The position numbers were made by a program, and so were the translations under genes. Under the pieces are notes generated by a model. It made no database searches, had not been told where the DNA came from, and saw nothing but the letters and a program-made list of their open reading frames with translations. From Escherichia coli (GTDB taxonomy: Bacteria > Pseudomonadota > Gammaproteobacteria > Enterobacterales > Enterobacteriaceae): 64,000 nucleotides of DNA. This document shows, one piece after another, positions 31,524 to 50,059 of the stretch (position 1 is the stretch's first letter; each line of letters starts with the position of its first letter). The stretch is from NCBI RefSeq assembly GCF_013315695.1, contig NZ_CP054353.1. The stretch is one strand, 5' to 3'.

Positions 31524-31616
31524 TAGTTTAAGTTTCACCTGCACTGTAGACCGACGTGGATAGGGTGTCGGTCTACGGTTTAAAAGATAACGATTACTGA
31601 AGGATGGACAGAACAC

Positions 31617-32783
31617 ATGAACTTACATGAATATCAGGCAAAACAACTTTTTGCCCGCTATGGCTTACCAGCACCGGTGGGTTATGCCTGTACTACTCCG
31701 CGCGAAGCAGAAGAAGCCGCTTCAAAAATCGGTGCCGGTCCGTGGGTAGTGAAATGTCAGGTTCACGCTGGTGGCCGCGGTAAAGCGGGCGGTGTGAAAG
31801 TGGTAAACAGCAAAGAAGACATCCGTGCTTTTGCAGAAAACTGGCTGGGCAAGCGTCTGGTAACGTATCAAACAGATGCCAATGGCCAACCGGTTAACCA
31901 GATTCTGGTTGAAGCAGCGACCGATATCGCTAAAGAGCTGTATCTCGGTGCCGTTGTAGACCGTAGTTCACGTCGCGTGGTCTTTATGGCCTCCACCGAA
32001 GGCGGCGTGGAAATCGAAAAAGTGGCGGAAGAAACTCCGCACCTGATCCACAAAATTGCGCTTGATCCGCTGACTGGCCCGATGCCGTATCAGGGACGCG
32101 AGCTGGCGTTCAAACTGGGTCTGGAAGGTAAACTGGTTCAGCAGTTCACCAAAATCTTCATGGGCCTGGCGACCATTTTCCTGGAGCGCGACCTGGCGCT
32201 GATCGAAATCAACCCGCTGGTCATCACCAAACAGGGCGATCTGATTTGCCTCGACGGCAAACTGGGCGCTGATGGCAACGCACTGTTCCGCCAGCCTGAT
32301 CTGCGCGAAATGCGTGACCAGTCGCAGGAAGATCCGCGTGAAGCACAGGCTGCACAGTGGGAACTGAACTACGTTGCGCTGGACGGTAACATCGGTTGTA
32401 TGGTTAACGGCGCAGGCCTGGCGATGGGCACCATGGACATCGTTAAACTGCACGGCGGCGAACCAGCTAACTTCCTGGACGTTGGCGGCGGCGCAACCAA
32501 AGAGCGCGTAACCGAAGCGTTCAAAATCATCCTCTCTGACGACAAAGTGAAAGCCGTTCTGGTTAACATCTTCGGCGGTATCGTTCGTTGCGACCTGATC
32601 GCTGACGGTATCATCGGCGCGGTAGCGGAAGTGGGTGTTAACGTACCGGTCGTGGTACGTCTGGAAGGTAACAACGCCGAACTCGGCGCGAAGAAACTGG
32701 CTGACAGCGGCCTGAATATTATTGCAGCAAAAGGTCTGACGGATGCAGCTCAGCAGGTTGTTGCCGCAGTGGAGGGGAAATAA
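31617..32783 (+). CDS. sucC: Succinyl-CoA synthetase beta subunit
   Basis: 388 aa [18 protein letters not shown]... Confidence 0.97.
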
Positions 32784-33652
32784 TGTCCATTTTAATTGAT
32801 AAAAACACCAAGGTTATCTGCCAGGGCTTTACCGGTAGCCAGGGGACTTTCCACTCAGAACAGGCTATTGCATACGGCACTAAAATGGTTGGCGGCGTAA
32901 CCCCAGGTAAAGGCGGCACCACCCACCTCGGCCTGCCGGTGTTCAACACCGTGCGTGAAGCTGTTGCTGCTACTGGCGCTACCGCTTCTGTTATCTACGT
33001 ACCAGCACCGTTCTGCAAAGACTCCATTCTGGAAGCTATTGATGCAGGCATCAAACTGATTATCACCATCACTGAAGGCATCCCGACGCTGGATATGCTG
33101 ACCGTGAAGGTGAAACTGGATGAAGCGGGCGTTCGCATGATCGGCCCGAACTGCCCGGGCGTTATCACTCCGGGTGAATGCAAAATCGGTATCCAGCCTG
33201 GTCACATTCACAAACCGGGTAAAGTGGGTATCGTTTCCCGTTCCGGTACACTGACCTATGAAGCGGTTAAACAGACCACGGATTACGGTTTCGGTCAGTC
33301 GACCTGTGTTGGTATCGGCGGCGACCCGATCCCTGGCTCTAACTTTATCGACATCCTCGAAATGTTCGAAAAAGATCCGCAGACCGAAGCGATCGTGATG
33401 ATCGGTGAGATCGGCGGTAGCGCTGAAGAAGAAGCGGCTGCGTACATCAAAGAGCACGTTACCAAGCCTGTTGTGGGTTACATCGCTGGTGTGACTGCGC
33501 CGAAAGGCAAACGTATGGGCCACGCGGGTGCCATCATTGCCGGTGGGAAAGGGACTGCGGATGAGAAATTTGCTGCTCTGGAAGCCGCAGGCGTGAAAAC
33601 CGTTCGCAGCCTGGCTGATATCGGTGAAGCACTGAAAACTGTTCTGAAATAA
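32783..33652 (+). CDS. sucD: Succinyl-CoA synthetase alpha subunit
   Basis: 289 aa [33 protein letters not shown]... Confidence 0.97.
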
Positions 33653-33751
33653 ATATCTGTAATAAGAAATAGCCCTCGCCGCTTCCCTCTACAGGAATGG
33701 CGAAGGGCTGTCGGTTTCGACATGGTTGGCCATCATATGATGGCCTTTTTT
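33653..33751 (+). ncRNA. sdhX: Probable 3'UTR-derived sRNA of the sdh-suc operon (SdhX/RybD-like), ending at the sucD terminator
   Basis: About 100 nt between the sucD stop and a strong terminator (GGCCATCATATGATGGCC + T6, 33728-33751); assignment from memory of the K-12 arrangement, not a sequence alignment. Confidence 0.45.
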
Positions 33752-33857
33752 ATTCGGGCACTAATCTGAAAAGTTTGCCCACTGCTTTTTTTCCCCATCC
33801 TCTGCGCAATAATGCCCGGCGAAATATCTCCTCTCCGTTCTGTAAAAGGATTTATAC

Positions 33858-35051
33858 ATGAAGAAAATTGTTCTGCCGGTTGCTCTGGCCCTGATGGGTA
33901 TAAATGCGGACGTTTATGCGGCCGATGTAAAGATCGATATTTTAAGTGCAACAGTGAAAGATAAACGCATTGAGGGGGCATCGGTGACGCTGCAACGCAA
34001 TGGCGCACAATCTGTTTCTGGCACCACAAATGCCTCGGGCAGCATTAATCTGGGCTCTTCCTTTGCCGATGATCAAGATGCTTTGTTAATCGTCAAAAAA
34101 GAGGGCTATTCTAATCTGGTGGTCAAATGCCCGTGTGCGGGCATGACTTATGCGATTAGTCCGGTAATGACTAGTCTGGATGGCATGCGTGTCGTATTGA
34201 GCTGGGGCGAAAAGCCTTTTGATCTTGATTCGCATTTGATCTTCCCTGGCGGACATATTTATTTTGATAGTAAAGAGGGGACTGATGCCAATCTGGATGT
34301 TGATGATACGGATAGCTATGGACCAGAAACTGTCACTATCAGCAAAAAGCATTTTGGCGAAAGTTACATCTATGCCGTGCAGGACTATAGCAATAAAGGG
34401 TTGCCCAACAGTAATTATCTCTCTGCCAGTAAGGCAAAAGTGTTTGTTTATGTAGGGGGCTCCCTGGTGCGTAGTTATAGTGTCCCTGCTGGAAAACGAG
34501 GGAACATCTGGACCGTGTTTAAACTCAATCCAAACGGCGAGTTTGAAGATATCAACTCTGTTACCACCGCCAATTTTAACGACACCACATTAGGCGTCAG
34601 GGATTTAGCCACTGTGATAATGCCTGCGACGGGTTCTTCAACTCCGGCTTCACCTGCGATGCAAAACAGTGGATATACTCAACTGGCAAGAAAATATAAT
34701 CGTGAAGGCGAAGCTGTTTACAAAACCGGTCAACTTGAGCAAGCCATTCAACTCTTCCAACAGGCAACAGAATTAGACGGCAATTACGGTCAGGCATTTA
34801 GTAACCTGGGTCTGGCTTATCAGAAAAATGGCAACATCGCGGAAGCGATTTGGGCAAATCGTAAAGCGATCTCGTTAGCCAGTGGAGCAAATGCGGCGAC
34901 AACGCGCGCTAACTCCTATTATAACATTGCCAAAATTTATGAAACTGCAGGACAGAACGCTGATGCATTGCAGCATTATCAACTCGCTTATGCGGAAAAA
35001 AATAAGCCCTCTTATGAAGAGGCCATCGCACGGGTAAAAGCGAAAATGTAG
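33858..35051 (+). CDS. Secreted protein with YfaP-like (DUF2135-type) central domain and C-terminal TPR repeats
   Basis: 397 aa; Sec signal peptide MKKIVLPVALALMGINADVYAA; motif LSWGEKPFDLDSHL...DANLDVDDTDSYGPETVTI as in YfaP-family proteins; C-terminal TPR-like repeats (AIQLFQQATELDGNYGQAFSNLGLAYQKNGNIAEAI...). First gene of the island. Confidence 0.7.
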   Translation: MKKIVLPVALALMGINADVYAADVKIDILSATVKDKRIEGASVTLQRNGAQSVSGTTNASGSINLGSSFADDQDALLIVKKEGYSNLVVKCPCAGMTYAISPVMTSLDGMRVVLSWGEKPFDLDSHLIFPGGHIYFDSKEGTDANLDVDDTDSYGPETVTISKKHFGESYIYAVQDYSNKGLPNSNYLSASKAKVFVYVGGSLVRSYSVPAGKRGNIWTVFKLNPNGEFEDINSVTTANFNDTTLGVRDLATVIMPATGSSTPASPAMQNSGYTQLARKYNREGEAVYKTGQLEQAIQLFQQATELDGNYGQAFSNLGLAYQKNGNIAEAIWANRKAISLASGANAATTRANSYYNIAKIYETAGQNADALQHYQLAYAEKNKPSYEEAIARVKAKM

Positions 35052-35428
35052 CGGTTAGCAAACAGGAGGCTATGTGGTGTTAGCCTCCTTACCCCCAGGC
35101 CAGTGGGAATATAGTAATCATCGTTTTTAACATTCAACGTCCAGATTCTGCTTGAGCGTAAAAACAAGTCTTTAGATATTTTATAAATGATGAAGGGCTG
35201 GAAAGTGGTTGATGTCACCGACTCACGATCGTTATCGCCAGCAAAGCTTTTTTGCCATTGCACCAGACGCACCTTCAACCATTTTGGCGACGAATCAACT
35301 GCTACCGCCACCAGGCTTGTTTGCCATTTTCCCGTACCTAATTCGTCGCTTGCCGCACTGTTGGCTGTAATCAATGGCCCAATGCCCAACCAGATACTTC
35401 TATATCCGATTGGGTTTTGTTAATTGCG

Positions 35429-36025
35429 TTACCCCTTAAACGTTAACCTCGGTCGAAATCTGACCGCTGGCTGAATTAATCCGGCTTCTTGTTGGGCTTC
35501 GATAACCGGACCAATATCTTTATAAGCAGCTGGCGCTTCTTCAATACGCCGTTCTTCGCGCAATGTGACGCATTGCCACGGCAACGTTGACTCTGCAGTC
35601 GCGCGTGAGCGCATGGCCTGCCGACGCTGGCTGCGTCCTGCTCCGTGACTGCAAGACCACAGCCACTCCGGGTTGCCGCAACCAACCGCAAGCCAGGAAT
35701 AATCACCCATGGAACCGGGGATTAACGCCAGATCGCCCGCGCGTGCCGGTGTTGTGGCCACCACAGCGCCAACGGGGACGCCATTGCCGGGATGAAAATC
35801 TGGCGTCGCGCACGTCTGGCGCACATAACCTGGGTGGTCTGGTAGCTTCACTTCTGCAAAATCAAGCAGTTGTGTTACTGCTTTTTCTTCCAGCGGCAGT
35901 TCGTCCGGCAGCAGTACGCGGGCACTGGCACCTGATGGACGAGATAATGAAACAATATTGTTGGCGCGGGAAAGTTGGATCCCTTTGCGCAGAAAGGCTT
36001 TATCAAGCCTTGAAAGATGATGCAT
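35429..36025 (-). CDS. Shortened RtcB-like protein (RNA-ligase family motifs, central region absent)
   Basis: 198 aa; N-terminal PDFHPGNGVPVGAV resembles the RtcB PDxHxG metal-binding motif, and the C-terminus (IPGSMG...CSHGAGR...AYKDI...FKG) resembles the RtcB C-terminus, but the motifs are about 50 aa apart instead of about 300. Confidence 0.55.
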   Translation of the reverse strand: MHHLSRLDKAFLRKGIQLSRANNIVSLSRPSGASARVLLPDELPLEEKAVTQLLDFAEVKLPDHPGYVRQTCATPDFHPGNGVPVGAVVATTPARAGDLALIPGSMGDYSWLAVGCGNPEWLWSCSHGAGRSQRRQAMRSRATAESTLPWQCVTLREERRIEEAPAAYKDIGPVIEAQQEAGLIQPAVRFRPRLTFKG

Positions 36026-36614
36026 AACGCTGTCCTGAAATATAGACGTTAAACAACCCCCTGTATTGCGAGGGTAATTTTGTCTTTCCGGTCAGCAGCC
36101 AGCAAAAGGGAAAGAAAACGCGCGTAGTGTATGTGGCGATAGCAAGTTTTACAAGTGGTAAATCTGGCTTATTGTTAAAGAGGAATTATCTTTTGTGAAG
36201 TCTTTTAAGGCCATGACTCATTCAATTTAACCGGACATAGATAATATATAACATAGGGTATATAAATTTATCATTGTATACTTGTCATAATTCAAGTTGC
36301 ATGTGCTGCATCGATGTTCGCTCACCCAGGTCACTTACTTATGTAAGTTTCTGGAAATTCATTATTTGTTCCCTTCCTGCAACTTGACTTATTTAGAGTA
36401 TATTCATGTATATGAATAATATTCTTGCAATAATAGCTTTAAAGTATTGCATGCGGATAACTGAGGTGAAATTCCTGTTTTAGGATTATTGTCACTTTAT
36501 TTTCCTGGTTAGACATATAGCTGACTGGTTTGTTTATTTGAATTATGATATTCATTAGTGCTACTGTTTTTTATAAAATAATTTTTGAATTGTTATTTTT
36601 TCACGGACGGCATT

Positions 36615-37520
36615 ATGCGAGGAAAAATACCTAAAACGGAACTGCTGGTGACTTTTGAGGTCGTCGCACGTCATGAAAGTTATACCAGAGCGGCAGAGGA
36701 GTTAGCGTTAACCCAAAGTGCAGTATTCAGACAAGTAAGTGCGCTGGAGGAATTTTTACATACTCCGTTATTTTCACACTCTAAAAAACGCATTTTTCTT
36801 AATGATGCAGGGAAGTATTACCTGGGGATAGTAAAAGAAACATTAAATAAGCTGGAACGCGATACCAATACCATTATGACCTGGCAGCCTACGGTTCAGG
36901 TTATTGAACTTGCCGTTAATCCTACTTTTAGTACCCACTGGTTAATCCCAAATTTACATGAATTCACAAAGTTACATCCCGATATTATTGTTAATATTCA
37001 TTCTTTAGCTAATAACGGCGACTTTCTTAATCGGGAGTACGATGCTGTCATTATGCGCGAAAATTTTTGCGCGCCCTGGGCGGAAGTAGAGTATCTCTTT
37101 GAAGAGGAGATTTTGCCGGTATGCAGCGGCAGTTTGCTTGCAATGTCCGATCAAAAACTGTCAGTGGCAGAACTGCTTACTGAGTTACCACTTCTGCATC
37201 AAAGCACCCGTATTACTGGCTGGGAAGAGTGGTTTGCTTTATCTGGCGTTAGCAGTCCGCTGGTCAATAACGGACCACGTTTCGATTTGCTTTCAATGCT
37301 GATTGCCGCCGTGCGCTCTAATCTCGGCGTGGCGCTGTTACCACGGTTCGCTATTCAACATGATTTGGATAGTGGCGATATGGTGATTCCCTGTGATGTG
37401 CCTATTCGTACCGGTAATCGTTTTATTATGACGTGGCAGGAAGAGAAGTCTGACTCACCGCACTTGCAGCAATTTCGTGAATGGTTGCTGGCGAAATCGG
37501 TCGTACCGCAGGAGATGTAA
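36615..37520 (+). CDS. LysR-family transcriptional regulator
   Basis: Start chosen at MRGKIPKTELLVTFEVVARHESYTRAAEELALTQSAVFRQVSALEE (N-terminal HTH) followed by a substrate-binding domain; divergent from the RtcB-like ORF and convergent with the cobA-like gene. Confidence 0.8.
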   Translation: MRGKIPKTELLVTFEVVARHESYTRAAEELALTQSAVFRQVSALEEFLHTPLFSHSKKRIFLNDAGKYYLGIVKETLNKLERDTNTIMTWQPTVQVIELAVNPTFSTHWLIPNLHEFTKLHPDIIVNIHSLANNGDFLNREYDAVIMRENFCAPWAEVEYLFEEEILPVCSGSLLAMSDQKLSVAELLTELPLLHQSTRITGWEEWFALSGVSSPLVNNGPRFDLLSMLIAAVRSNLGVALLPRFAIQHDLDSGDMVIPCDVPIRTGNRFIMTWQEEKSDSPHLQQFREWLLAKSVVPQEM

Positions 37521-37553
37521 AACCTGCGCCTGGCGGGATGCCAGGCGCAGTTA

Positions 37554-38156
37554 TTACCAGTCGATACCCGGCTGGGCCTGAATGCCGTTATCAAAAGCAT
37601 GTTTGACGGGGCGGATTTCGCTTACCGTATCCGCCATTTTTAATATCTGACTGTGGCAACCGCGTCCGGTGACAATGACACTTTGTTGTGCCGGGCGGTT
37701 TTGCAGAGAAGCGATCACTTCTTCGGTGTCCAGATAATGGTAAGCCAGCATATAGGTCAGCTCATCAAGCACCACTAAGTCGTAACGCTTGTCAGCCAGC
37801 ATCCGTTTGCTTTCCGACCAGACCTCTTTCGCCGCGTCGATATCCGCTTGCCGGTTCTGTGTCTCCCAGGTAAAACCGGTTCCCATAATATGAAACTCAA
37901 CCCCCAGCGGCTGGAGAAGGTTGTATTCGCCGTTGTCCCATTGCCCCTTGATGTACTGCGCAACCCCCACCGTTTTGCCATGACCCACCGCGCGCGTCAC
38001 AGTACCAAACGCGGCAGTGGATTTCCCTTTGCCGTTGCCGGTGAAAACAATCAAGATCCCTTTTTTCTCTATCGCCGCCGCGACGCGCGTATCGACCTGT
38101 TCCTTCAATTTCTGCTGGCGCTGCACATGCCGTTCAGTTGAAATTCGCGCTTCCAT
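37554..38156 (-). CDS. Cob(I)alamin adenosyltransferase (BtuR/CobA family paralog)
   Basis: 200 aa; P-loop GNGKGKSTAA and overall strong similarity to BtuR as recalled (...VFTGNGKGK.TAAFG...RAVGHGK.VGV.Q.IKG.W.NGE...); probably supplies adenosylcobalamin for glutamate mutase. Confidence 0.85.
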   Translation of the reverse strand: MEARISTERHVQRQQKLKEQVDTRVAAAIEKKGILIVFTGNGKGKSTAAFGTVTRAVGHGKTVGVAQYIKGQWDNGEYNLLQPLGVEFHIMGTGFTWETQNRQADIDAAKEVWSESKRMLADKRYDLVVLDELTYMLAYHYLDTEEVIASLQNRPAQQSVIVTGRGCHSQILKMADTVSEIRPVKHAFDNGIQAQPGIDW

Positions 38157-38165
38157 TCATTTTCC

Positions 38166-39818
38166 TTAATGTCCCGCAGGGCAACTGGCGCAGCGGTGTT
38201 TCTGCTCAAACTGACTAAAGAAATTATTGCCTTTATCATCTACCAGGATGAATGCGGGTAAATTTTCCACTTCCATCATCCACACCGCTTCCATACCCAG
38301 CTCCGGGTATTCCAGGCAACGCAGACTTTTGACATATTCTTGCGCCAGTAACGCAGCTGCACCGCCAATACTTCCCAGATTGAAGCCGCCATGTTTGTGA
38401 CAGGCATCGGTGACCTGCTGGCTGCGGTTACCTTTCGATAACATCACCAGACTGCCGCCAGCCGCCTGGAAGGTATCGACATAACCGTCCATTCGACCGC
38501 CCGTGGTTGGACCCAGTGAACCGCAGGCCATGTTCTCCGGTGTTTTCGCCGGGCCAGCGTAATAGACAATATGATGCTTCAGGTAATCCGGCATCGGTTC
38601 GCCGCTATCCAGCCGCGCTTTTATTTTGGCGTGGGCGATATCGCGCGCCACTACGATGGGACCACTTAACGACACGCGGGTGCCTACCGGTAATCTGGCG
38701 AGATCCTGCATCACGTCACGCAACGGACGATTTAGATCCAGCTGTACATGTTGCGCGTGATTTTCTTCCCGCAGTGAGGCTGGAATATATTGCCCCGGAT
38801 TGTGTTCGAGTTTTTCCAGCCAGATACCGTGCTTGTTAATTTTTGCTTTGATATTGCGATCCGCAGAACAGGAGAGCGTCATAGCTATCGGGCAAGAGCC
38901 ACCGTGACGCGGCAGACGAATGACGCGAATATCATGAGCGAAATATTTACCCCCAAATTGCGCACCAATACCAAATTGCTGACTGGCCTCGAGCAATACT
39001 TTTTCCAGCTCAATATCACGGAATGCTTGTCCTTGCTCGTTTCCGCTGGTGGGCAAATTGTCGTAATATTTCGTTGAGGCCAGCTTGGCAACTTTTAAGG
39101 TTTGATCGGCTGAAAGCCCTCCGACGACAAAGGCGATGTGGTAAGGCGGGCAGGCAGCGGTGCCCAGCGATTTCATTTTTTCGATTAAAAATGCGGTCAG
39201 TTTTTCTGGTTGCAATAGGGATTGGGTTTCCTGATAAAGCGCGGCTTTATTGGCAGAGCCGCCCCCTTTATTAATACAGAGAAAATGGTACTCATCACCA
39301 GCGACGGCGCTGATATCAATCTGCGCCGGGAGATTGGTTTGCGTATTGACTTCGGTAAACATATCCAGTGGCGCATTTTGTGAAAAGCGCAGATTATTTT
39401 CCTGAAAAGTGGTGTAAATGCCTTTGCTTAAGGCTTCAGCGTCGTTACCTCCGGTCCATATCTGTTGCCCTTTACTGGCAACAATAGTTGCGGTGCCGGT
39501 ATCCTGACAGTTGGGTAATACCCCTTTTGCTGAGACTTCAGCATTACGTAATAACTGCAACGCAACGTATTTATCATTACTACTGGCGTGCGGATCGTTA
39601 AGAATGCTGGCGACCTGTTGCAAATGAGCGGAACGTAAGAAAAAAGAGGCTTCATAAAATGCCTGCCGGGCAAGCAGCGTTAATGCTTCAGGAGCGATTT
39701 TTATCACTTCTTCGCCGTCTAATTCCGTTACTGTAATATGTTGATCGCTAATTAATGTATATTCTGTACCGTCTTTATTTTGTAGAAACGGTTCTTGCCA
39801 GATAAATGGTTTGGACAT
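38166..39818 (-). CDS. fumD: Class I (Fe-S) fumarate hydratase paralog; mesaconase/fumarase
   Basis: 550 aa, collinear with FumA/FumB ([11 protein letters not shown]...[12 protein letters not shown]...[14 protein letters not shown]...[13 protein letters not shown]...). I recall a mesaconase named FumD from an E. coli O157:H7 glutamate-mutase cluster; symbol given on that basis. Confidence 0.88.
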
Positions 39819-39925
39819 ATTTCACTTTTCACCTTAAACGTTAGTTTTACTTAATTGCCGTCTAACTTCATGATCCGGCTTATAAAAATGCGTAGTCATT
39901 GGCTTCTGATTGCTTAAGATCCCCC

Positions 39926-41206
39926 TCAGGGCAGAGCAACGTTCGATTCATTGGGTTTTAATGCTTTACCCCGACAGCCCTCGCCGAAATGTTCGCCTTC
40001 CCACCGACTCACCATCGCAGCGCCCATTGCGTTGCTCATGACGTTTGTCGCGGAACGCCCCATATCAAGGAACGGATCAACGCCCATCAGCAAGATCAGC
40101 CCCGCTTCCGGAATATTGAACTGGTTGAGCGTGGCGGCGATAACCACCATTGAGGCGCGTGGTACGCCAGCCATTCCTTTCGAGGTCAACATCAGGATCA
40201 ACAGCATGGTGATTTGCTCACCGATGGATAAATGGATATTGCAGGCCTGGGCGATGAAAACTGTGGCGAAGGAGCAGTAGGCCATTGATCCAACGAGATT
40301 AAATGAGTAGCCAATGGGTAAGACAAAGCTGGCAATTTTGGGGGAAACGCCAAATTGCTCCAGTTTTTCAAGCGTTCCCGGAAAAGCCGCTTCAGAACTG
40401 GATGTGGTAAATGCCAGCAGGGCGGGTTCCGAAAGGGCACGGGTCAGGCGTCTGATGCAGGGGCCGACATAAACGATGGCCAGACCGATAAGCAGCACCC
40501 AAAGTAACAACATGGTGAAATAAAATTCACCCATAAAGATCCCGGCGCTCACCATAACTGCCAGTCCTCGTTCAGCAATCAATGCTGAAATAGCGGCGAA
40601 TACGGTCAGGGGAGCGAAGAGCATGACGTAGCCAGTGAGCTTTAACATGGCATGTGCCAGCGAATCTAAGGCGTGAACGATGGCGCTGCCTTTCTCACCA
40701 ATCGCCGTCAGGCTACAGCCGAGGAAAATTGAGAACACCACGATTTGCAAAATTTCATTGTGCGCCATGGCATCGACAATGCTGGTGGGGAAAGCATGCG
40801 AAATAAATACTTTTAGTGTAAAGGGTTCTGACGCGACCACTCCGGTGGTTTCGGCACCGTGTGCAACAAAATTAATTCCTGTGCCTGGCATGAAGAAATT
40901 TACCGTTATCAAGCCTAAGGCAATTGACAGCAATGAGGCGCAAATAAATAAAAAGAGTGTTTTAGAAAAAATACGACCAAGGGCTTTGGCATCTCCCATT
41001 TTAGCTATACCTACCACCAGGGTAGAGACCACTAACGGAGCGATAATCATTTTTATCAGTCGTAAGAAAATCGTCGTGAATATCGATATTTCTTGCGCAT
41101 AGAGTTTTGCGGTTTCCGGTGAAGCAGTGTTATTGAGCACTACGCCGATAATCATTCCAAGTACCAGCGCCAAAAGAATCATCGTGGTTAAACTTATTTT
41201 CTTCAT
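39926..41206 (-). CDS. Dicarboxylate/amino acid:cation symporter (DAACS; GltP/DctA-like)
   Basis: Start at MKKISLTTMILLALVLG (ATG 41206, GGAGG RBS); polytopic membrane protein with DAACS-type conserved segments; substrate (glutamate, mesaconate or citramalate) is not decidable from sequence. Confidence 0.85.
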   Translation of the reverse strand: MKKISLTTMILLALVLGMIIGVVLNNTASPETAKLYAQEISIFTTIFLRLIKMIIAPLVVSTLVVGIAKMGDAKALGRIFSKTLFLFICASLLSIALGLITVNFFMPGTGINFVAHGAETTGVVASEPFTLKVFISHAFPTSIVDAMAHNEILQIVVFSIFLGCSLTAIGEKGSAIVHALDSLAHAMLKLTGYVMLFAPLTVFAAISALIAERGLAVMVSAGIFMGEFYFTMLLLWVLLIGLAIVYVGPCIRRLTRALSEPALLAFTTSSSEAAFPGTLEKLEQFGVSPKIASFVLPIGYSFNLVGSMAYCSFATVFIAQACNIHLSIGEQITMLLILMLTSKGMAGVPRASMVVIAATLNQFNIPEAGLILLMGVDPFLDMGRSATNVMSNAMGAAMVSRWEGEHFGEGCRGKALKPNESNVALP

Positions 41207-41366
41207 TTTTTCCTCCATCAGGTGCACGGCGATAAATCAGAATCAGGAGAAGTAGATGCCTGAATAGAGATTCAGGCATCTACCTGCTATTACAACCTTA
41301 CAAATAGCTGAAGTGTTGAACTGCAATAAGTGACGGGATGTCAGTTGGCTAAAAGTATTCGGATTT

Positions 41367-41684
41367 TTACAAATCGAAACTCATATTTAATAAAGGTGCA
41401 TGTTGCTGTGCACCATAGACATCATTGTCACCTACATTCCCGGAGATAATATCTCGTGGCATGACGATTTTTACTGCGTTAGAAGGATCAAACCAGACAA
41501 TACGGTGAATAAAGTCAGGTTCAACATGATATAAGCGCGCAATCAGTTCTGGGGTTAATTGCCCTGATGATTTAACTCGCTCATAGTTTTCTTTCGTTTT
41601 AAATAAAATATCTAAAACCAGTTCGTAAGGTCCGGCATTTTTCGAACGAATGACTTGCGCCAGTGAGACAATTGACTGTTTCAT
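41367..41684 (-). CDS. Small conserved protein, DUF4387-like partner of the AtuA-like protein
   Basis: 105 aa; start overlaps the stop of the upstream DUF1446 ORF by 4 nt (translational coupling); family assignment from memory. Confidence 0.55.
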   Translation of the reverse strand: MKQSIVSLAQVIRSKNAGPYELVLDILFKTKENYERVKSSGQLTPELIARLYHVEPDFIHRIVWFDPSNAVKIVMPRDIISGNVGDNDVYGAQQHAPLLNMSFDL

Positions 41685-43051
41685 GCCTGAACTCCTTCTG
41701 GCGTCACCTGTTCAATATGGAAATCAAAACGCAGAGCGTCGTTGGCTTCAATCAGGTGATATATGGAAAATTCGTATACCGGCCCGCCCTGGATATCAGA
41801 AGGGGAGAACGGGAACGCCAGATTGCCTGCGGTAGCGATGCGGTTTTCATAGCCGTAGTGCAGCATGGTAGAGCGCACCAGCGAGCAAACGCTATTGGCA
41901 ATTTCCTGGGTCGGTGCAACTACATCAAGGACAATCCCCAGCTCATGCCCGGCAGTTTGCATCGGTTCATGGTCGCCCATCACCCCGTTTTTGCCGTACA
42001 GGTGGAAATTGATGCGAATGCTGTCATCGTCGAGCGACAGGTTACGCCAAACGCTGGTTTTGACTTCATCGATGATTTTATCGATCCCGGCGATCATGAT
42101 CGGGTCGCGCGTTCCTGCGATGGTCAGACAGCGGAAGCCCACCCGTCGCGCACCTTCCAGTTTCAGGGCATACGGCGTTTCTTCATGCTTAGAACCGCTG
42201 ACGTACACTTCGCCGTCATTGACCGCTTTAAATGTGCAGCCTTTCAGGTTCAACACGCCGCCAGGTCCAGGCAGGAAGTAGGGATCGGATTTCTCATACA
42301 GTGTGTGTGCAGCCGCTGACGTTTCGGTAAATTTACGCTTCGGATTAAATGTCTTCAGCGTAAAGCCGTTGTCATCAATGATGCCCATCGCACAGTCAGA
42401 GCCTGAGCCGGGCGTTGCGGCGATTGCCGCGCATTCAAGGATTTTCCCACAATGCAGCGCCAGACCTTCATCAAAGCCTTGCATGATCGGGAGCGCAGCA
42501 AAGCAGGCCGGGTCGTAAGCGCGCCCGCCCAGCACCACTTGCGCGCCTTCTTTCAGCGCCCGCTGGAAGGGTTCGATGCCCATTTGCGCGACGATATACG
42601 TACTTTCGTCAATCGCGTCGTGGGTTAACGGCGGGACAAAATCCAGCGCCGTGATTTTGCCGTTATCCAGCGCCTGGTGGACGATGGCTTTGTCAACGTC
42701 TGCCGGGATCAACGCCATCGAGAACGAGAGGTGCTCTTCCTGGGCAATCTCATGAATTATTTCTCGGCACCACTCCAGGTGTGGTGCGGCACCAGAACCG
42801 CCAGCTGTTCCGATCACCACCGGTATATTATTTTGCACGCCTGCGGTGATCATATAGCGCAGATCGCGCTTGACCCCTGCGCGATCGGTAAACGGTTTGC
42901 CTGCCCCGAGGTAGTGGGGGCCTGGATCGGAAGAGCCTGCATCAACGGCGATCAGATCGGGCGATTCTGCCATCGCTTTGCGGAAGCTCTCTTCCGGGAA
43001 TCCATACCCGAGGATTGCCGTTGGCGATAAGACTTTAAAAGAACGAGCCAT
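41681..43051 (-). CDS. AtuA-like protein (DUF1446 family), function unknown
   Basis: 456 aa; N-terminal G-Y-G-F...D-A-G-S region resembling the DUF1446 signature; starts 3 nt after the methylaspartase stop. Confidence 0.65.
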   Translation of the reverse strand: MARSFKVLSPTAILGYGFPEESFRKAMAESPDLIAVDAGSSDPGPHYLGAGKPFTDRAGVKRDLRYMITAGVQNNIPVVIGTAGGSGAAPHLEWCREIIHEIAQEEHLSFSMALIPADVDKAIVHQALDNGKITALDFVPPLTHDAIDESTYIVAQMGIEPFQRALKEGAQVVLGGRAYDPACFAALPIMQGFDEGLALHCGKILECAAIAATPGSGSDCAMGIIDDNGFTLKTFNPKRKFTETSAAAHTLYEKSDPYFLPGPGGVLNLKGCTFKAVNDGEVYVSGSKHEETPYALKLEGARRVGFRCLTIAGTRDPIMIAGIDKIIDEVKTSVWRNLSLDDDSIRINFHLYGKNGVMGDHEPMQTAGHELGIVLDVVAPTQEIANSVCSLVRSTMLHYGYENRIATAGNLAFPFSPSDIQGGPVYEFSIYHLIEANDALRFDFHIEQVTPEGVQA

Positions 43052-43054
43052 TTG

Positions 43055-44296
43055 TTAATCCTTAGCCTGCAACAGCGCGATAGTACGATTCATTTCGTTG
43101 AAGACGATATCGAGGCCTTCGTCAAAGCCCATCCCTGGCTTTACCAGCATACGCATAGGGCGAGCGGCAAGGGCGACGTGGACACAGGTGCGGGCACTGA
43201 CATCAGTTTCATTGCAGGTGCCGCCCTGGTACGCTTCCATGCTGTGGCTGTTGCAGTAAAGAACCGCATCGACGATGTTGTGAATACTGCCCAGATCCGG
43301 GGTTTTGATTTGCACCATGTGACAACTGGCGGCATCAGTGAAATCAACAATATCCTGGTAGGTGTTACACCATTCATCGGCCACAATTTTCACGCCGGAA
43401 CCGAGGCGCGTCAGCTCTTTGGTAATCGCGGTCAGCAGGCGAATTTGATCGGGCTTGTTACCGGCATCGACCGGCCCTTCAATGTAGAGCGGCAGGCCTT
43501 GCGCTTCTTTTTCCAGGCTGGCGATGTATTGCGCACAGCGAAGCGGATCCATATCGAAGATCAGGCCGATAGTGCCGTATACATCGATGTGCAGGGTTGG
43601 GTGGTAGCGTGCGCTGGTGCGCTTGCTCAGAATACGATCCGACAGCCAGCGGACATATTCGCGCAGTTTTTCACCTTTAAAGCCCAGTTTCTCTTCGACG
43701 TTATTAATCAGTGCATGGGGCAGCACGTCGATGCCCTTAAGGATCATCTTATCGACGGCGATATATCGATCGTCCCCGCTCTGACCAAATAATGGAATGG
43801 ATTCCGCCACGCGTGGCAACTGCCATTCATCACAGACCACTTCAGTTTTCAGACGGCCGGTTGCCAGCGCGGTAGCATCAAGCAGCGCCTGTGATAATCC
43901 GTAGCGCACGGCGGTATGCAGCAAGTTGCCGTCAATACGCAATTTGTCGAAGAAACGGGCATTCGGCAGGAAAGCATCCACATCGCGGCCTATCAGTAAT
44001 GGCTTGATATGGTCGTTGAGGAACGGAATAAAGTGCTCAGCGAGGAACAGTGGATCGCGACCACCTGCCCCGGAATACTGTACGGCAGCACAGTCACCTA
44101 CGGCGACCGCGCCGTTTTCCAGAATCAACTGTACCGATACGCACTCCCCGGCCTGACGAACGGCGTTAAACCCCTGTGTTACCGGCTCCCCGGTATAAAA
44201 AAAGCCGTCATGACCCGCTCCGTTTTTTATCGCCTGCTGGTCATCGAAATAGAATGAGGAGTAGCCAGCAGTGAACAGAGCCTGTTTTATTTTCAT
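43055..44296 (-). CDS. 3-methylaspartate ammonia-lyase (beta-methylaspartase)
   Basis: 413 aa; very close to clostridial MAL as recalled: ...YFDDQ.AIK.GAGHDGF.YTG...AVQYSGAGGRDPLFLA...QSGDDRY..VDKMI.K..DVLPHALINNVEEKLG.KGEKL...HMVQIKTPDLG...GGTCNET. Confidence 0.92.
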   Translation of the reverse strand: MKIKQALFTAGYSSFYFDDQQAIKNGAGHDGFFYTGEPVTQGFNAVRQAGECVSVQLILENGAVAVGDCAAVQYSGAGGRDPLFLAEHFIPFLNDHIKPLLIGRDVDAFLPNARFFDKLRIDGNLLHTAVRYGLSQALLDATALATGRLKTEVVCDEWQLPRVAESIPLFGQSGDDRYIAVDKMILKGIDVLPHALINNVEEKLGFKGEKLREYVRWLSDRILSKRTSARYHPTLHIDVYGTIGLIFDMDPLRCAQYIASLEKEAQGLPLYIEGPVDAGNKPDQIRLLTAITKELTRLGSGVKIVADEWCNTYQDIVDFTDAASCHMVQIKTPDLGSIHNIVDAVLYCNSHSMEAYQGGTCNETDVSARTCVHVALAARPMRMLVKPGMGFDEGLDIVFNEMNRTIALLQAKD

Positions 44297-45741
44297 TATG
44301 GTCTTCCTATTAATTTACTGTGGGATACAGCATTGATGTCATCTACAACCATCTGGAATGTCGGTTGGCGTCCTTCAAAGCGTGCGCGTTCCGCAACGTA
44401 ATCGTGGTGGAGGTCGAGAATATCTTTTGGCAATGGAACGGCTCCGGCTTCCAGTACGCGTATCGCGCCGGTGTTGTCACGGACCGGAAGAATTTTGCCC
44501 GCGTTGCAGGCGGCTGGCGCAAACGGCACATCCAGTACGCCCGCTTCAAATGCCAGCACCGTACCGCGCGCAATATCACCATTACCCAGTTCGAACACTT
44601 TATTCAGTACCGCGTGAACCTCGCTCTTAATCAGTTCAATTTCCAGTTCAACCGCAGGGCACGGCGGGAATTTCTGCTCGTTGACCATGTTGAGCATCTG
44701 GCGGGAGGCTTTCAGCCCCTGAATGTTGGCAGCGGCAGTCGGGATGCCCCAGGCTTCGTGCGGACTTTTGGTGATGACTTTGGTGGCACCAGACATCCCC
44801 GCGACGGCTGCGCCCCAGGAGATAATAGCGAACGCTTTCGATTCGTCTTCCGGAAAGCCGCCCATCCACTGGTGAAACACGGTACTTAATTCATAGTCGG
44901 TATAGCCATAGCTCTGAAAATATTCGTGTGCAAGTTCACGCAGAGACTGGATCGCCGCAACATCCTGCGTCAGGCTGCCGACCTGTCCATAACCAACGGT
45001 GATAGATTTCACACCCTGTTCCAGCGCCAGTAATCCTTCGATTATCGCGATAGAGTGCGAGATAAACGGCGGGATCAGGGTACCCGTTAGTGGGCCAAAC
45101 GGTTCGCGGTTGATGCGGATCCCGTGTTCTTCATACATCCCCATTAAACGGTCGCAGTACTGCCAGTCGCGGATCGATTTTTCCAGCGTTACGCGCTTGG
45201 CATACGGAATGTTGTAGGAAATGCCGCCGCCTTCATAACTGGTAAAGCCGCTGGCCATCGAGATTTCAGCCAGCAGACGCGCATCTGGCGTGCCGTGGCG
45301 GATCTGTAGCGGTTTTTGCAAAGTTTCGGTGAGGCGACGGCAAGCTGCGACGCCGTGGTTAACGACCGGTAAACCGTTCAGTTTAGAGGTTCCGGCTTCG
45401 ATGGATTTTTTAATCCCTACAGCCGCTTCTTCGTACCGATTCAGACGGGTATATGCGTCGATGGTGCTCGGCAGCAGATCGCATTCTTCTTGTAGTGTTT
45501 TCAGTAGTTCGATGTGTTCGTCCATCAGCGCCACGCCTGCGCGCGGTTGGCTAAGAGTTTTACCTTCCTTGTCTGCTTTCAGCAGGGCAAGAGAGAAGCG
45601 TTTATGCTCAGGAATGGTTTGTTGGTATTTAACGCCATCTTCAAAGTTTTCAACATCCTTGCCGGTTTCCCAGGTTTTCAGTACCTGTTGCCGCTCGGTC
45701 ATGAATTCGTCATGGGTTAATTTCTTATTTCGAAGTTCCAT
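44296..45741 (-). CDS. Glutamate mutase epsilon (E, catalytic) subunit
   Basis: 481 aa; collinear with clostridial GlmE/MutE (MELRNKK...QPRAGVAL.DEHIELL...LPSTIDAYTR.NRYE...GTPD.RLLAEI...EGGGISYN.PYAK...FQMV.DDI.AV). Confidence 0.92.
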   Translation of the reverse strand: MELRNKKLTHDEFMTERQQVLKTWETGKDVENFEDGVKYQQTIPEHKRFSLALLKADKEGKTLSQPRAGVALMDEHIELLKTLQEECDLLPSTIDAYTRLNRYEEAAVGIKKSIEAGTSKLNGLPVVNHGVAACRRLTETLQKPLQIRHGTPDARLLAEISMASGFTSYEGGGISYNIPYAKRVTLEKSIRDWQYCDRLMGMYEEHGIRINREPFGPLTGTLIPPFISHSIAIIEGLLALEQGVKSITVGYGQVGSLTQDVAAIQSLRELAHEYFQSYGYTDYELSTVFHQWMGGFPEDESKAFAIISWGAAVAGMSGATKVITKSPHEAWGIPTAAANIQGLKASRQMLNMVNEQKFPPCPAVELEIELIKSEVHAVLNKVFELGNGDIARGTVLAFEAGVLDVPFAPAACNAGKILPVRDNTGAIRVLEAGAVPLPKDILDLHHDYVAERARFEGRQPTFQMVVDDINAVSHSKLIGRP

Positions 45742-45759
45742 TGATTGCAGCCTTAATTG

Positions 45760-47148
45760 TTATAGGGTTAAGCATTGAATACTGGTGCGCGCGGCGGCCA
45801 GCGGATCGACTCTGGCGACGTTTGCCAGCAGTGGTAATAGCCCCCGGGAATCGCGGTAATATTCAAATTCGGTCGGTAAGAGAATGCGTTTACCGTCGTC
45901 GTTTAACTCGCGGTATTTCAACCAGTGATGCATATCGAACTGACTGGCACGCGAGAGCCATCCGCCGGATCCGACGACTTTACGCACGGTTGTCAGGTCA
46001 CGTCCCATCTGTAAATCGACATTGCCGACGCAGGTGCAGACCTCTTTTTTGGTGCCCGCATGTCTTTCGGTGGCATAACCCACACACAGTCCGGCCAGGA
46101 CTGTATCGAAATATTTTTCTTCTGCATTCGCGGGTAAGTAGTCGGGATGAGCGACTAGATGACGGAGGTAATGATAAAAAGCGTCCAGCTGTGCGGGTTG
46201 CTGAGCAAAATTCACATTGACTAACTCTTTCGCACTTTCACCAACCACCATTGCCGAGACGCGCATTCCCAGATCGCCTTCCACCGTCCGTTTCACGAAG
46301 GGTTCCGGTACGCCGTGTAAAACGGTGTCGGGCGAGAGCGTGTTGGCACAGGCGGAATAGACATCGGTGGTTGCGCCACCCATGTCGATCAGTATGAACT
46401 CTTTCCAGCTGTGATCGACATTACTGATTGCCTTAACCAGTTCAAAGACTGTCCACGGTGTCGGCATTGGTTCTTCGCCTGTTTTATCAACAACGACATC
46501 CAGCCCTTTCCCTTTAACGATGCGTTTAAGGAATATGTCGCAGATAGCCTGGCGTGCAGCTAAAGGGTTCGGATGGTCAAGATCGGGCAGAACGTTGTCG
46601 ACGATGGTCAGGTCTTTATGCCCTAGGATCTCCTGCACCTCGTCCTGAATATCCCGGTTTCCGGCATAAATAATGGCGCAGTCGAGTTTGGATTCTGCCA
46701 GCACACGGGCGTTATTCAGGCCGTAGCTTTCTTCTCCGCCGTCGGTGCCGCCGGTGAACAAGAGAATATCGGGCTGCGTTTCTTCCAGTGCCTGGATATC
46801 ACGGCGGTTCAGCTTGTAGGAGTAATATTGCGCAATTTTAGCCCCCGCAGAGTGAGCGGTTACTTTCGCGGTTTCCAGGGTGATAGAAGGCACCAATCCC
46901 ATTGCGGCAACCGCCAGCCCACCTTTGGCAGAGGAGGAATACTTCAATGCAACCTCACCGTTGTTAAACAGGGGGAGGGTATTATCTACGTTTAACACCA
47001 GGTTCAGGCTGGAGAAAAACCCCTTCGCCAGATGATGGGTGGTGGTTGGGGTCAGTACGTGGTTAACCAACGTTAACGCGTCCCCCTCCCGGGCGAAGAG
47101 GGCTGCTTTGGTCCACGTCGATCCAATATCGACAGAGACGATTTGCAT
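45760..47148 (-). CDS. Glutamate mutase-associated protein L (GlmL/MutL-type putative chaperone or reactivase)
   Basis: 462 aa; N-terminal [18 protein letters not shown] (ASKHA/actin-like ATPase start); sits between the S and E subunit genes as in clostridial mutS-mutL-mutE. Confidence 0.8.
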   Translation of the reverse strand: MQIVSVDIGSTWTKAALFAREGDALTLVNHVLTPTTTHHLAKGFFSSLNLVLNVDNTLPLFNNGEVALKYSSSAKGGLAVAAMGLVPSITLETAKVTAHSAGAKIAQYYSYKLNRRDIQALEETQPDILLFTGGTDGGEESYGLNNARVLAESKLDCAIIYAGNRDIQDEVQEILGHKDLTIVDNVLPDLDHPNPLAARQAICDIFLKRIVKGKGLDVVVDKTGEEPMPTPWTVFELVKAISNVDHSWKEFILIDMGGATTDVYSACANTLSPDTVLHGVPEPFVKRTVEGDLGMRVSAMVVGESAKELVNVNFAQQPAQLDAFYHYLRHLVAHPDYLPANAEEKYFDTVLAGLCVGYATERHAGTKKEVCTCVGNVDLQMGRDLTTVRKVVGSGGWLSRASQFDMHHWLKYRELNDDGKRILLPTEFEYYRDSRGLLPLLANVARVDPLAAARTSIQCLTL

Positions 47149-47597
47149 CAGATTGCCTCTTCAAGAATACGAGTATCAACGTCATGACGTTGGTTGATAT
47201 CGTGTGCCATCAGCTGACAAACATCTTCTAAGTCATGACTTGGGGCAAAGACGCGATCAAATCCCATCTCTTTGAATTTGGTTTCCACGTCAGCGAAGTC
47301 ATGTTTTCCGACCACCAGGTTACCGCCCACATAGAGCAGGATGTCCCCCAGTCCACGCTCGATGCAGCGTTCGCGCATGCCCAGACAGTCGATATCGCCA
47401 TGCCCATAGATAGAGGAGACGACAATCGCGTCAGCGCCAGTTTCAATGGCCGCATCAATATATTCGTCCTGGCTGACCATTACGCCCAGATTAATGACTC
47501 TGAAGCCATGGTTGCTAAAAACGCGGTCCAGAACTTTATTGCCTACTGCATGGCAGTCCGCGCCAATAACGCCAATCACAAGTGTTGCTTTCTTCAT
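47148..47597 (-). CDS. Glutamate mutase sigma (S, B12-binding) subunit
   Basis: Start at ATG 47597 ([27 protein letters not shown]...), 149 aa; B12-binding DxHxxG motif; AAGGA RBS. Track ORF with the longer N-terminus is rejected. Confidence 0.9.
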
Positions 47598-48143
47598 GGG
47601 TAATCCTTTGTAAGACAGAGAGTAAAATAAGTTACACACGTCGTATTTATGGCCGTTCATAACGGCACAGGTTTAATATCACAGGAGTGTCTTTATCTGA
47701 CCGTAATGTTGCAATTGATCTATTTTCAAAATGTCTTTCGGGAAATGATTGTTTAAAGTATGTTGTTAAATTCTCATGTTAATTCAGTGTGTTATGTCAA
47801 CTAATGTCATGAATGTTAAATTTTTAAAATTAACTTGATTTGGTGTATTGAGGTATTTGTGATCTACTTCTAATTTGCATTTTAGTGATATGGGTTTAGC
47901 CATGAGTAAATGCATTTCATAAAATTTAAGTCGAATTTCACTGCAATTCATCTCTGCTTAATGTAAAAATAATGTTGAAAATAACAAATGGTTAATGATT
48001 CATGCGAATTATGACCTTAGTTAGCTCTTTTGATTTTTCGTAAAAAAGAGAGGTACATGAAGGTGCTACCAGTATGAGTAACGTTAATCAAAGGTTTTAT
48101 TACGTCTGGCAATAACGCAGGCCATTTTCGCGACTGGGTGGAT

Positions 48144-48566
48144 TTAATCAGTATAATCCTCATACAATAGTTCACGATTAACTGAACCGTTAACGGGGAT
48201 TTGGTGTTGAAATTTAGAAATGGCGGAGTCAATTAATGAAGACAATATCGAAAAAATGACAGTGTCAGAATTAATTTCAATTAATCCTTCTCGTTGTTGA
48301 CCAAAAAAGATATTTATCTTGATTTCATTTGTACTACGGCAATCAATATGTAGTAATTTTTGATCGCTGAGATTTTCTGTTTCATAAATGTTTTTGGCGA
48401 TAGTCGGATGTATTGATGCCAGACATCTGCTCAGATAAGCCAGATCCTTTAGGGAACACCCCGCTGAGTAGAGGATGTCAGAGAATTTTTGTGTGTTAAC
48501 TGTTGTCTCTGAAGCGTATGTTGCATTGACAGGAAGGGTGTTGAAAGAGATTTGAGATGGGAGCAT
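48144..48566 (-). CDS. Hypothetical protein (low-GC, no recognisable domain)
   Basis: 140 aa ORF 80 bp downstream of the 314-aa ORF on the same strand; no signal peptide or TM helix apparent. Confidence 0.4.
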   Translation of the reverse strand: MLPSQISFNTLPVNATYASETTVNTQKFSDILYSAGCSLKDLAYLSRCLASIHPTIAKNIYETENLSDQKLLHIDCRSTNEIKINIFFGQQREGLIEINSDTVIFSILSSLIDSAISKFQHQIPVNGSVNRELLYEDYTD

Positions 48567-48646
48567 TATTTAAATCTTTCCGTGAGTAATAAAAATTAAT
48601 CCCCGGGCATTGTTTAGCAATATTTGCCACAGGTAATATATAAAAA

Positions 48647-49591
48647 TTAAAGTATTTGATTGGCATCGGTTAACTGATCAATAACCAGTGCCAGATTGGT
48701 AAACATTTTGAAAAAGCGATACTGGCTCGGAATATCTCTTTCAAAGACGAAACATTCAATGTCATTGTTTGAAAAATAAAGGACTAGTGTTGCTGATTCG
48801 TCAGGAAAAATATGGAAATATATCTGGTTACCAGAAGGAGGATAGTCCAGAAGAAGGGTATCTTTGCCCGTCACATACCTGTTGTGGTCGTGGATGCTGC
48901 GCTCACACTTCATCAGAGGTGTCATGATACTCATGTATTCATCTGATGTTAATATATTAAAATCACCATCCATTTTAAAGAAACGATAAAGTAACAGTAC
49001 ATCCTCTTGCGTAACCGGTTCGTTTGTTTTTAGAGGGAAATAAGTGGGAACCAGAAGATGAGGTTCTAATCTATTTTGTTGAGCGCTATAACTAAATTTG
49101 AACATAAATTCCGGATCGCTCATCAATTGAGCGACATAATTATGCCTGGCTTCAAAAATTTTAACTTTTATCAGGTTAAATAAGTCTGTTTCGTCATCCT
49201 GTATTAAAAGACATTGGCCATAGCAGCCAGGCTTTTTTTCATTATAAGCAGAAACGGTTATTCTGTCAGGAGTGTCAACGTTATATCCAAAAGCCAGATA
49301 GTGACCGTCCTCATCGAGATTTGTTTCCAGGTTATTTAAATTTATCACATGAAGTGTTTGCAATGCTGATTCAATGAGCTGTTGACTCTCTGAGGTAAAT
49401 GTTTCGCGCTGCGTTGTATAAAGTGTATCGATTCCAACGACTATCCGATATGGGTCAAGGATGGCGGCAATCATCTTTATTACCTGCACAGCCACGGGTG
49501 ATGTCATTGATTCGTTATCTGTTTTTAGAGGATCATTAGATGGCCAACCTGAGAAGCGATTGACAGCCGAACCGATATTATCAGGACTCAT
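48647..49591 (-). CDS. Hypothetical protein (low-GC, no recognisable domain)
   Basis: 314 aa ORF in a strongly AT-rich stretch (roughly 38-40 percent GC by eye); acidic, apparently soluble; no family recognised. Confidence 0.5.
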   Translation of the reverse strand: MSPDNIGSAVNRFSGWPSNDPLKTDNESMTSPVAVQVIKMIAAILDPYRIVVGIDTLYTTQRETFTSESQQLIESALQTLHVINLNNLETNLDEDGHYLAFGYNVDTPDRITVSAYNEKKPGCYGQCLLIQDDETDLFNLIKVKIFEARHNYVAQLMSDPEFMFKFSYSAQQNRLEPHLLVPTYFPLKTNEPVTQEDVLLLYRFFKMDGDFNILTSDEYMSIMTPLMKCERSIHDHNRYVTGKDTLLLDYPPSGNQIYFHIFPDESATLVLYFSNNDIECFVFERDIPSQYRFFKMFTNLALVIDQLTDANQIL

Positions 49592-50045
49592 AGCAGCAAC
49601 CTCATTGTAATCAAGCGAGGCGCTGAGCGTACTCGGCTATAGAAAAACTAACTTGCAAAAATCGCTCATTTTTCATTTATCAGGCGAAAGTGGTCTCTGT
49701 TCACTCAGAAACAATCACTCCCGCTAAGTCATACCTGTTTCATCGATACACTTAAGTGATTATTACTAATGAAACAATAACATAACGGGCTTACGGCCGG
49801 TGCTCATAAAGGCAACAATCAATTAACTTTGATAAAAATATGTTATGTAAAATAGCAACAAATTGGCTAATCTAATCAATTGGTATTATAAAAAGTGGAT
49901 AAGGCGGTTCTGTTAAATAAAACACTGGTTTTTTATCTATACCTTTTCATTGTAATAATTGTGTTGCATAAATATTTCACAATAAATTAACAATAAAATC
50001 ACCAATGATCTATGGTTTATACATAATTAACATATTTGGTTGGTT

Positions 50046-50059
50046 TTGATATAAATCAA
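50046..50059. promoter_or_regulatory. FNR-type box (TTGAT-N4-ATCAA) in the cydAB upstream region
   Basis: Perfect palindrome TTGATATAAATCAA about 340 bp upstream of cydA; a second half-matched site TTGATCACTGTCGAA lies near 50150. Confidence 0.5.

Follow-up and report, generated by a model that had tools for sequence, protein, structure and literature searches.

The 64,000-nucleotide stretch of Escherichia coli DNA analyzed here (contig NZ_CP054353.1; hereafter, the window) carries an intact sdhX gene directly after sucD, and this small RNA (sRNA) gene is likely to be the fixed left edge of an old, modular, and multi-allelic interval between sucD and cydA, rather than the border of a site-specific integration. 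The initial annotation of the region had described an accessory island inserted immediately behind the terminator of the sdh-suc operon; what it observed is confirmed, being correct but ordinary, and its reading as an insertion is K-12-centered and only partly supported. The features concerned are collected in Table 1.

Table 1. Features of the window between sucD and the region upstream of cydA
Feature	Position	Strand	Basis
sucD	32783..33652	+	ORF list; RefSeq annotation of matching region, strain MS 21-1
sdhX (SdhX/RybD), 101 nt	33653..33753	+	homology to MG1655 b4764
5′ stem-loop of long SdhX form, contains C34 (33686)	33671..33709	+	minimum-free-energy fold
SdhX seed UUCGACAUGGU, just before terminator stem	33716..33726	+	exact match to PMC6393394 seed
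Intrinsic terminator of operon and SdhX; GGCCATC/GATGGCC 7-bp stem, ATAT loop, T6	33728..33751	+	terminator scan; fold
Common post-terminator tail ATTC	33752..33755	+	junction sequences, 12 loci
TPR-gene leader, 102 nt	33756..33857	+	no K-12 sequence; junction comparison
Module T: 397-aa TPR protein, signal-peptide-like N-terminus, C-terminal TPR repeats	33858..35051	+	ORF; Pfam
Module X: 383-bp remnant of minus-strand gene; 125-aa ORF at 35012-35389	35052..35433	-	
rtcB remnant, 198 aa, native C-terminus ...TFKG-stop	35429..36025	-	Pfam RtcB; BLAST vs 2017-02-2CC
Rest of module G, then cydA upstream region	36026..49755		RefSeq annotation of matching region

The gene sucD, whose TAA stop codon occupies 33650-33652, is the last gene of the sdhCDAB-sucABCD operon, which is found upstream in the window. 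In the RefSeq annotation of MG1655, the noncoding RNA gene sdhX (b4764; 765050-765150, 101 nt) has its first base right after sucD and its 3′ end 2 nt short of the mngR CDS, so that only those 2 nt of the sucD-mngR spacer lie outside it and K-12 has no intergenic DNA to spare there. The corresponding stretch of the window matches b4764 at 99/101 positions, and the 99 nt from the sucD stop codon to the end of the T run contain a single mismatch to a K-12-type genome, at 33735 (A here, G in K-12). From its sequence, 33653-33753 is best identified as the known sRNA gene sdhX, comprising the sucD 3′ untranslated region (3′UTR) and the intrinsic terminator of the sdh-suc operon, intact. The putative SdhX sRNA of the initial annotation therefore corresponds to the annotated MG1655 gene, with the seed, G62, and C34 all present.

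[quoted passage not shown] It represses ackA via the seed listed in Table 1. Its further targets in E. coli are fdoG, repressed by way of G62, and katG, repressed by way of C34; both pairing bases are E. coli-specific (PMC6393394). In the window, the fdoG-pairing base (position 33714) is still a G, and the katG-pairing base is still a C. The entire 3′UTR folds with z = -5.0. The seed and both arms of the terminator stem are invariant in 12/12 aligned Escherichia loci, across which no more than 4 substitutions are found in the 93 nt that run from the stop codon through the hairpin, and loop base 33735 (A/G/T) is the only hairpin position that varies. In E. albertii, C28→U and G47→A (window positions 33680 and 33699) co-occur, and pairing is kept in the 5′ stem-loop of the long SdhX form; the two substitutions read as a compensatory change in the predicted 5′ stem.

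Searching the region against Rfam 15 gave no family at the gathering score and, at E ≤ 10, just a weak, terminator-only resemblance to RyhB. We set this outcome aside as uninformative, since the annotated K-12 sdhX is 99% identical. Because a 99%-identical copy of an annotated gene gives no match, Rfam probably lacks an SdhX model.

The terminator hairpin itself (33728-33745, followed by T6 at 33746-33751) has a predicted energy of -12.7 kcal/mol (z = -4.6), the same as that of the K-12 allele. It was recovered by a terminator scan at 33728-33751, and the statement that the 3′UTR and its strong terminator are intact is borne out. By BLAST, homology to K-12 ends at 33751, and homology to the other arrangements of the locus ends at 33753-33755. 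The four bases that follow T6 are AT[G/T]C in most arrangements, GTGC in K-12, and ATTT in E. albertii. The last bases common to all arrangements end at 33755, which places the breakpoint at 33755/33756, 4 nt past T6 and 2 nt beyond the annotated 3′ end of the sRNA. Past this shared tail, TPR-type genomes read GGGCRCTAATCTG, rtcB-type genomes CTTAAACG, mngR-type genomes TTATCGCG, and E. albertii CAGCAT. Every alternative occupant (mngRAB, the TPR gene, the rtcB-led methylaspartate cluster, and the remnant gene of E. albertii) begins within 4 nt after the T run. Short indels are seen directly after T6 in E69 and E4385. It had been claimed that non-K-12 DNA starts about 100 nt past the sucD stop codon, right behind the terminator, and this holds, with no K-12 sequence beyond; the exact breakpoint, for whose definition an alignment to K-12 had been proposed, lies outside both the terminator and the sRNA.

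The contents of the interval in other strains were assessed with junction-specific BLAST queries against 5,426 complete E. coli genomes. At the sucD terminator, 3,884 genomes (72%) have the mngR junction, 838 an rtcB-deleted junction of the O157/O55 type, 545 the TPR junction, and 154 a junction with intact rtcB; together, these four types account for 5,421/5,426 genomes. Approximately 569 of the genomes with the mngR junction have TPR beyond mngB too, a number inferred from the second BLAST place per genome. The arrangements are exemplified by K-12 (mngRAB only), AR_0055 (mngRAB + TPR), P4 (TPR only; Nissle 1917 also has a P4-type TPR 3′ end), 2017-02-2CC (full rtcB and the methylaspartate cluster), and O55:H7 and O157:H7 (cluster with rtcB deleted). 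No empty site at sucD-cydA was seen among the E. coli genomes; the interval always holds an alternative module.

The window is without mngR, mngA, and mngB, which occupy this place in K-12, and its DNA from 33752 to approximately 50020 is all different from K-12. Its arrangement of TPR, X, rtcB, and cluster, as recognized by the X segment and the X/rtcB junction, was found in only 5 genomes. It is the rarest and most complete E. coli arrangement, made up of the TPR gene, the X remnant, the rtcB remnant, and the methylaspartate cluster.

Genomes that combine mngRAB with TPR show a further peculiarity. Their mngB terminator (GGTCATCTCCGGATGGCC-T5, -12.4 kcal/mol; AR_0055 locus 7868-7900) is a diverged copy of the sucD/SdhX terminator, with a likewise diverged copy of the TPR leader behind it. 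As the mngB terminator is such a copy, mngRAB is bracketed in these genomes by two terminator copies. The mngRAB alleles of AR_0055 (L006 2151-7819) and K-12 (L007 1402-7070) are 91.4% identical, a divergence that is unusually deep for E. coli.

In the window, the first occupant is the TPR gene, which in other strains adjoins mngB (mngRAB + TPR genomes) or sucD (TPR-only genomes). Matches to Pfam TPR_1/2/11/12 fall at residues 278-380 of the 397-aa protein, and a Pfam search with the N-terminal 248 aa returned nothing beyond a sub-threshold match to CarboxypepD_reg. The 397-aa form is present on 915 contigs. RefSeq/PGAP places the start codon at 33894 (385 aa), ATG 33858 gives the 397-aa protein with the N-terminus MKKIVLPVALALMGINADVYA, and both lengths circulate in protein databases. 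A good Shine–Dalgarno sequence, AAAGGA, sits 7 nt before ATG 33858, and the annotated start codon is probably 12 codons too late. A 54-aa ORF at 33697-33861 starts inside SdhX, crosses the terminator, and ends in an ATGA that overlaps the TPR start codon. It was set aside as probably due to chance, being frameshifted in E69, and the alleles that keep it open (E4385/E4694) are 98% identical anyway.

The leader between the shared tail and the TPR start codon is 98% identical to that of the window in Escherichia sp. E4385/E4694, 93% in P4, and 89% in E69, and it has no significant predicted RNA structure (z = 0.10). A scan of 33752-33857 for sigma-70 promoters found no match of 9/12 or better; on manual inspection, AATAAT at 33808-33813 was considered, but its -35 is poor, and we do not claim a promoter. 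The gene is co-directional with sdh-suc and starts 106 nt past the T run. Terminators of the Hfq-dependent sRNAs SgrS and RyhB are often read through in growing cells (PMC4509938). Read-through from sdh-suc into the TPR gene is therefore a reasonable idea, although the hairpin in the window is as stable as that of K-12; a literature search on SdhX read-through found nothing specific.

Behind the TPR gene lies the X remnant, a module present in only 5/5,426 complete E. coli genomes. Homologs with 82-89% amino-acid identity occupy the same position in Escherichia sp. E4385/E4694, and in E. albertii a 72% identical X stretch abuts the sucD terminator without TPR. Neither the remnant nor its E. 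albertii homolog was assigned to a family by Pfam. The segment 35051-35433 is 100% identical to NZ_OZ547117 and NZ_LR898874 and 99.2% identical to MS 21-1.

The adjoining rtcB gene has an internal deletion of approximately 793 bp compared with full-length alleles, its 3′ end and 5′ part being joined near 35746-35754 with a 9-nt overlap. Escherichia sp. E4385/E4694 share this 198-aa remnant, which points to an old deletion. The C-terminus of the protein is informative. In E4385/E4694, as in the window, RtcB ends in ...TFKG-stop, and this closing KG lines up with the C-terminal residues of Thermus thermophilus RtcB, whereas RtcB ends in ...TFKA-stop where rtcB abuts the terminator; the canonical KG is found only with TPR and X in between. 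In the rtcB-abutting genomes, it is the ATGC tail together with the final two T of the T run that supplies the GCA codon and the TAA stop codon, and mngR-type genomes carry this terminator tail as well. Judging by this pattern of C-termini, the rtcB-adjacent junction looks like a deletion of TPR, X, and the last rtcB codon.

The remainder of the interval contains the other genes of module G, namely, those for a LysR regulator, cobO, a class I fumarase (FumD-type mesaconase), a dicarboxylate/amino acid:cation symporter, DUF4387 and AtuA-like proteins, methylaspartate ammonia-lyase, glmE, glmL, and glmS, and two hypothetical genes. Homology with TPR-only and mngRAB + TPR genomes picks up again at 49756. 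The G+C content is 46% in the TPR region and 34-37% in some spacers, and most of the enzyme genes are at 50-59%, like the core. No mobility genes (integrase, recombinase) are present between sucD and cydA in the RefSeq annotation, the left junction shares no direct or inverted word of more than 8 nt with any module end, and the nearest tRNAs are 25 kb away. A literature search for an O-island description of the methylaspartate cluster found nothing specific.

Three further differences in and around the region deserve to be recorded. The upstream (regulatory) region of cydA (50021-50500) is 84.5% identical to K-12 and approximately 91-92% identical to B2-type genomes, far below the flanking genes. 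The sucB-sucC spacer (31523-31617) is 94 bp in the window versus 275 bp in K-12. In the annotation of the near-identical genome MS 21-1, the ybgOPQD fimbrial operon between abrB and gltA (approximately 21.5-22 kb) is a pseudogene fragment.

The same modules are found beyond E. coli. A search of genome contigs with a degenerate pattern for the SucD C-terminus returned 5 loci, all Escherichia-type, and the comparison used for polarity is accordingly one within Escherichia. The unclassified Escherichia E4385 and E4694 have sucD, SdhX, the 397-aa TPR gene, the 125-aa X ORF, and the 198-aa rtcB remnant in the order of the window, with the TPR gene 96.5-97% and sucC/sucD 97-98% identical to it. Module G of Escherichia sp. 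E1V33, which lies at the sucD terminator, is 87-88% identical, and this rtcB junction recurs in E. whittamii. The junction of the sucD terminator with TPR also occurs in B2-type E. coli and in the divergent E. coli E69, and the X homolog fused to the terminator in E. albertii is accompanied by the two hypothetical genes, next to cydA. Other Escherichia lineages thus carry the TPR, X, rtcB, and methylaspartate modules at this same terminator, and the modules are not absent from sister species. Small glmS and rtcB fragments also persist downstream of TPR in genomes without module G (AR_0055, P4, and E69). Between the rtcB remnant and the LysR gene, E4385/E4694 have an 8.6-kb histidine-utilization cluster (hutU, a transporter, hutD, hutI, hutG, and hutH; loci L016 861-8602 and L018 860-8601), which is one more module of the sucD-cydA interval.

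These comparisons bear on the age of the arrangements. RtcB looks old rather than newly gained, because its canonical C-terminus is kept only in the arrangement of the window. This arrangement cannot itself be the ancestor, because full-length rtcB occurs only in rtcB-adjacent (G-type) genomes; a common ancestor with TPR, X, and full rtcB is thus inferred rather than observed. As the G-type junction is also found across species, the question of which arrangement is older rests mainly on the RtcB C-terminus and the small remnants. One should also consider, against the reading as an old block, that E4385/E4694 are close to E. coli (sucC approximately 98%) and that recombination between lineages could move the whole block.

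The explanation that we favor, and regard as probable, is that of a fixed left edge. Purifying selection on SdhX and its terminator would set the left limit of the variable region, differential deletion or replacement of modules would generate the variety behind it, and homologous recombination within the conserved flanks, sdh-suc and cyd, would exchange whole alleles. The arrangement of the window would then be near an old Escherichia state and not a fresh insertion into a K-12-like genome, and site-specific integration would play no part. The whole sucD-cydA interval holds deep allelic lineages.

It is very improbable, by comparison, that a K-12-like chromosome received a single accessory island, spanning everything from the TPR gene to the methylaspartate cluster, by insertion just past the sucD terminator. 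Such an island would fit the stretch from 33752 to approximately 50020 that is unlike K-12, the low G+C content (34-46%) of parts of it, and the predominance of the mngR junction (72% of complete E. coli genomes). However, the absence of mngRAB turns the difference into a replacement, which contradicts the model, and the TPR gene is found without the methylaspartate cluster and vice versa, TPR also together with mngRAB. The same junctions are present in other Escherichia species at core-like divergence, genomes without the cluster retain glmS and rtcB remnants, and no mobility genes or att repeats were found. The initial annotation held that the accessory DNA was gained without disturbing the sRNA: SdhX and its terminator are indeed undisturbed, but the gain by insertion does not stand, mngRAB having been replaced and the modules being separable. 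The notion of a specific insertion point fares no better, there being neither an integrase, nor a tRNA target, nor flanking repeats, and the same junctions recurring in other Escherichia. We also think it unlikely that only the TPR + X segment (33756-35433) is a newcomer that entered an older G-type arrangement by insertion between its terminator and rtcB stop codon. Compared with 2017-02-2CC, the window has exactly 1.68 kb extra between the terminator tail and the rtcB 3′ end, the G-type junction is shared by E. whittamii, E1V33, and E. coli, and full-length rtcB is seen only in G-type genomes, all of which this proposal accommodates. It would, however, require the canonical C-terminal Gly of RtcB and its stop codon to have been re-created by chance, and the last G-type codon (GCA) and stop derive from a terminator tail that is shared with mngR-type genomes. 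Nor does it sit well with the rtcB/glmS remnants downstream of TPR in mngRAB + TPR, TPR-only, and E69 genomes, or with the X gene of E. albertii, which is fused to the terminator without TPR.

What counts against the fixed left edge is that selection alone leaves unexplained why several independent junctions fall in the same 4 nt and not deeper in the 102-nt leader. This coincidence is the starting point for viewing the SdhX terminator hairpin and T run as a structure-directed hotspot for the endpoints of deletions, duplications, and insertions, which could arise by hairpin-associated deletion, template switching, or terminator-targeted insertion. At least 3-4 independent junctions, namely, the mngR side, the TPR leader, and the fusions of rtcB and of the E. 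albertii X gene, lie no more than 4 nt past T6; mngRAB + TPR genomes have mngRAB between the sucD terminator and its diverged second copy, which is followed by the diverged TPR leader; and the indels of E69 and E4385 lie right behind T6. We nonetheless consider a hotspot quite unlikely: terminal repeats, target-site duplications, and mobility genes are all absent; two of the neighbors are convergent genes, whose ends would lie beside a shared terminator anyway; and the independent events are few, with recombination able to spread one junction widely. The coincidence of junctions at the base of the terminator remains one modest curiosity. If a hotspot did exist, the intrinsic terminators of 3′UTR-derived sRNAs would be the physical markers of where genes can be exchanged with the sRNA left unharmed.

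For those annotating this locus, we recommend handling the TPR gene separately from the methylaspartate cluster, as a module of its own. The mngRAB genes of K-12 are one of several alternative occupants, and part of what was called an island has long resided at the locus. The SdhX sRNA was already known, and the current understanding of SdhX and of genome plasticity is unchanged. SdhX, which links the operon of the TCA cycle to acetate metabolism, is kept across Escherichia within a few substitutions, and the DNA from 2 nt beyond it is exchangeable.

Compared with K-12, SdhX in the window has the same place after the sucD stop codon and the same seed, G62, C34, terminator stem, and U tail. Besides the loop base 33735, it differs in the first base past the T run (33752 is A in the window and G in K-12 sdhX) and in its downstream neighbor, a co-directional TPR gene in the window versus a convergent mngR in K-12. 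The methylaspartate/mesaconate cluster of the window, for glutamate fermentation and with a FumD mesaconase, is the one described in E. coli O157:H7 (PMC4682846). The cobO, fumarase, methylaspartate ammonia-lyase, and glmE/L/S genes of the window are 98% identical to those of O55:H7 and lie in the same sucD-cydA interval. In O157/O55, however, the cluster abuts the sucD terminator via the deleted rtcB remnant, whereas the window has the TPR gene and X remnant in between. Regions of genome plasticity and integration hotspots in E. coli hold alternative gene sets between conserved core genes. The sucD-cydA interval resembles the regions of plasticity in being a single interval bounded by core operons with different gene sets in each strain; unlike integration hotspots, it has no integrase, tRNA, or phage remnants, and its modules are metabolic genes long resident in the genus. 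Differential loss and allelic exchange account for the pattern better than repeated integration does.
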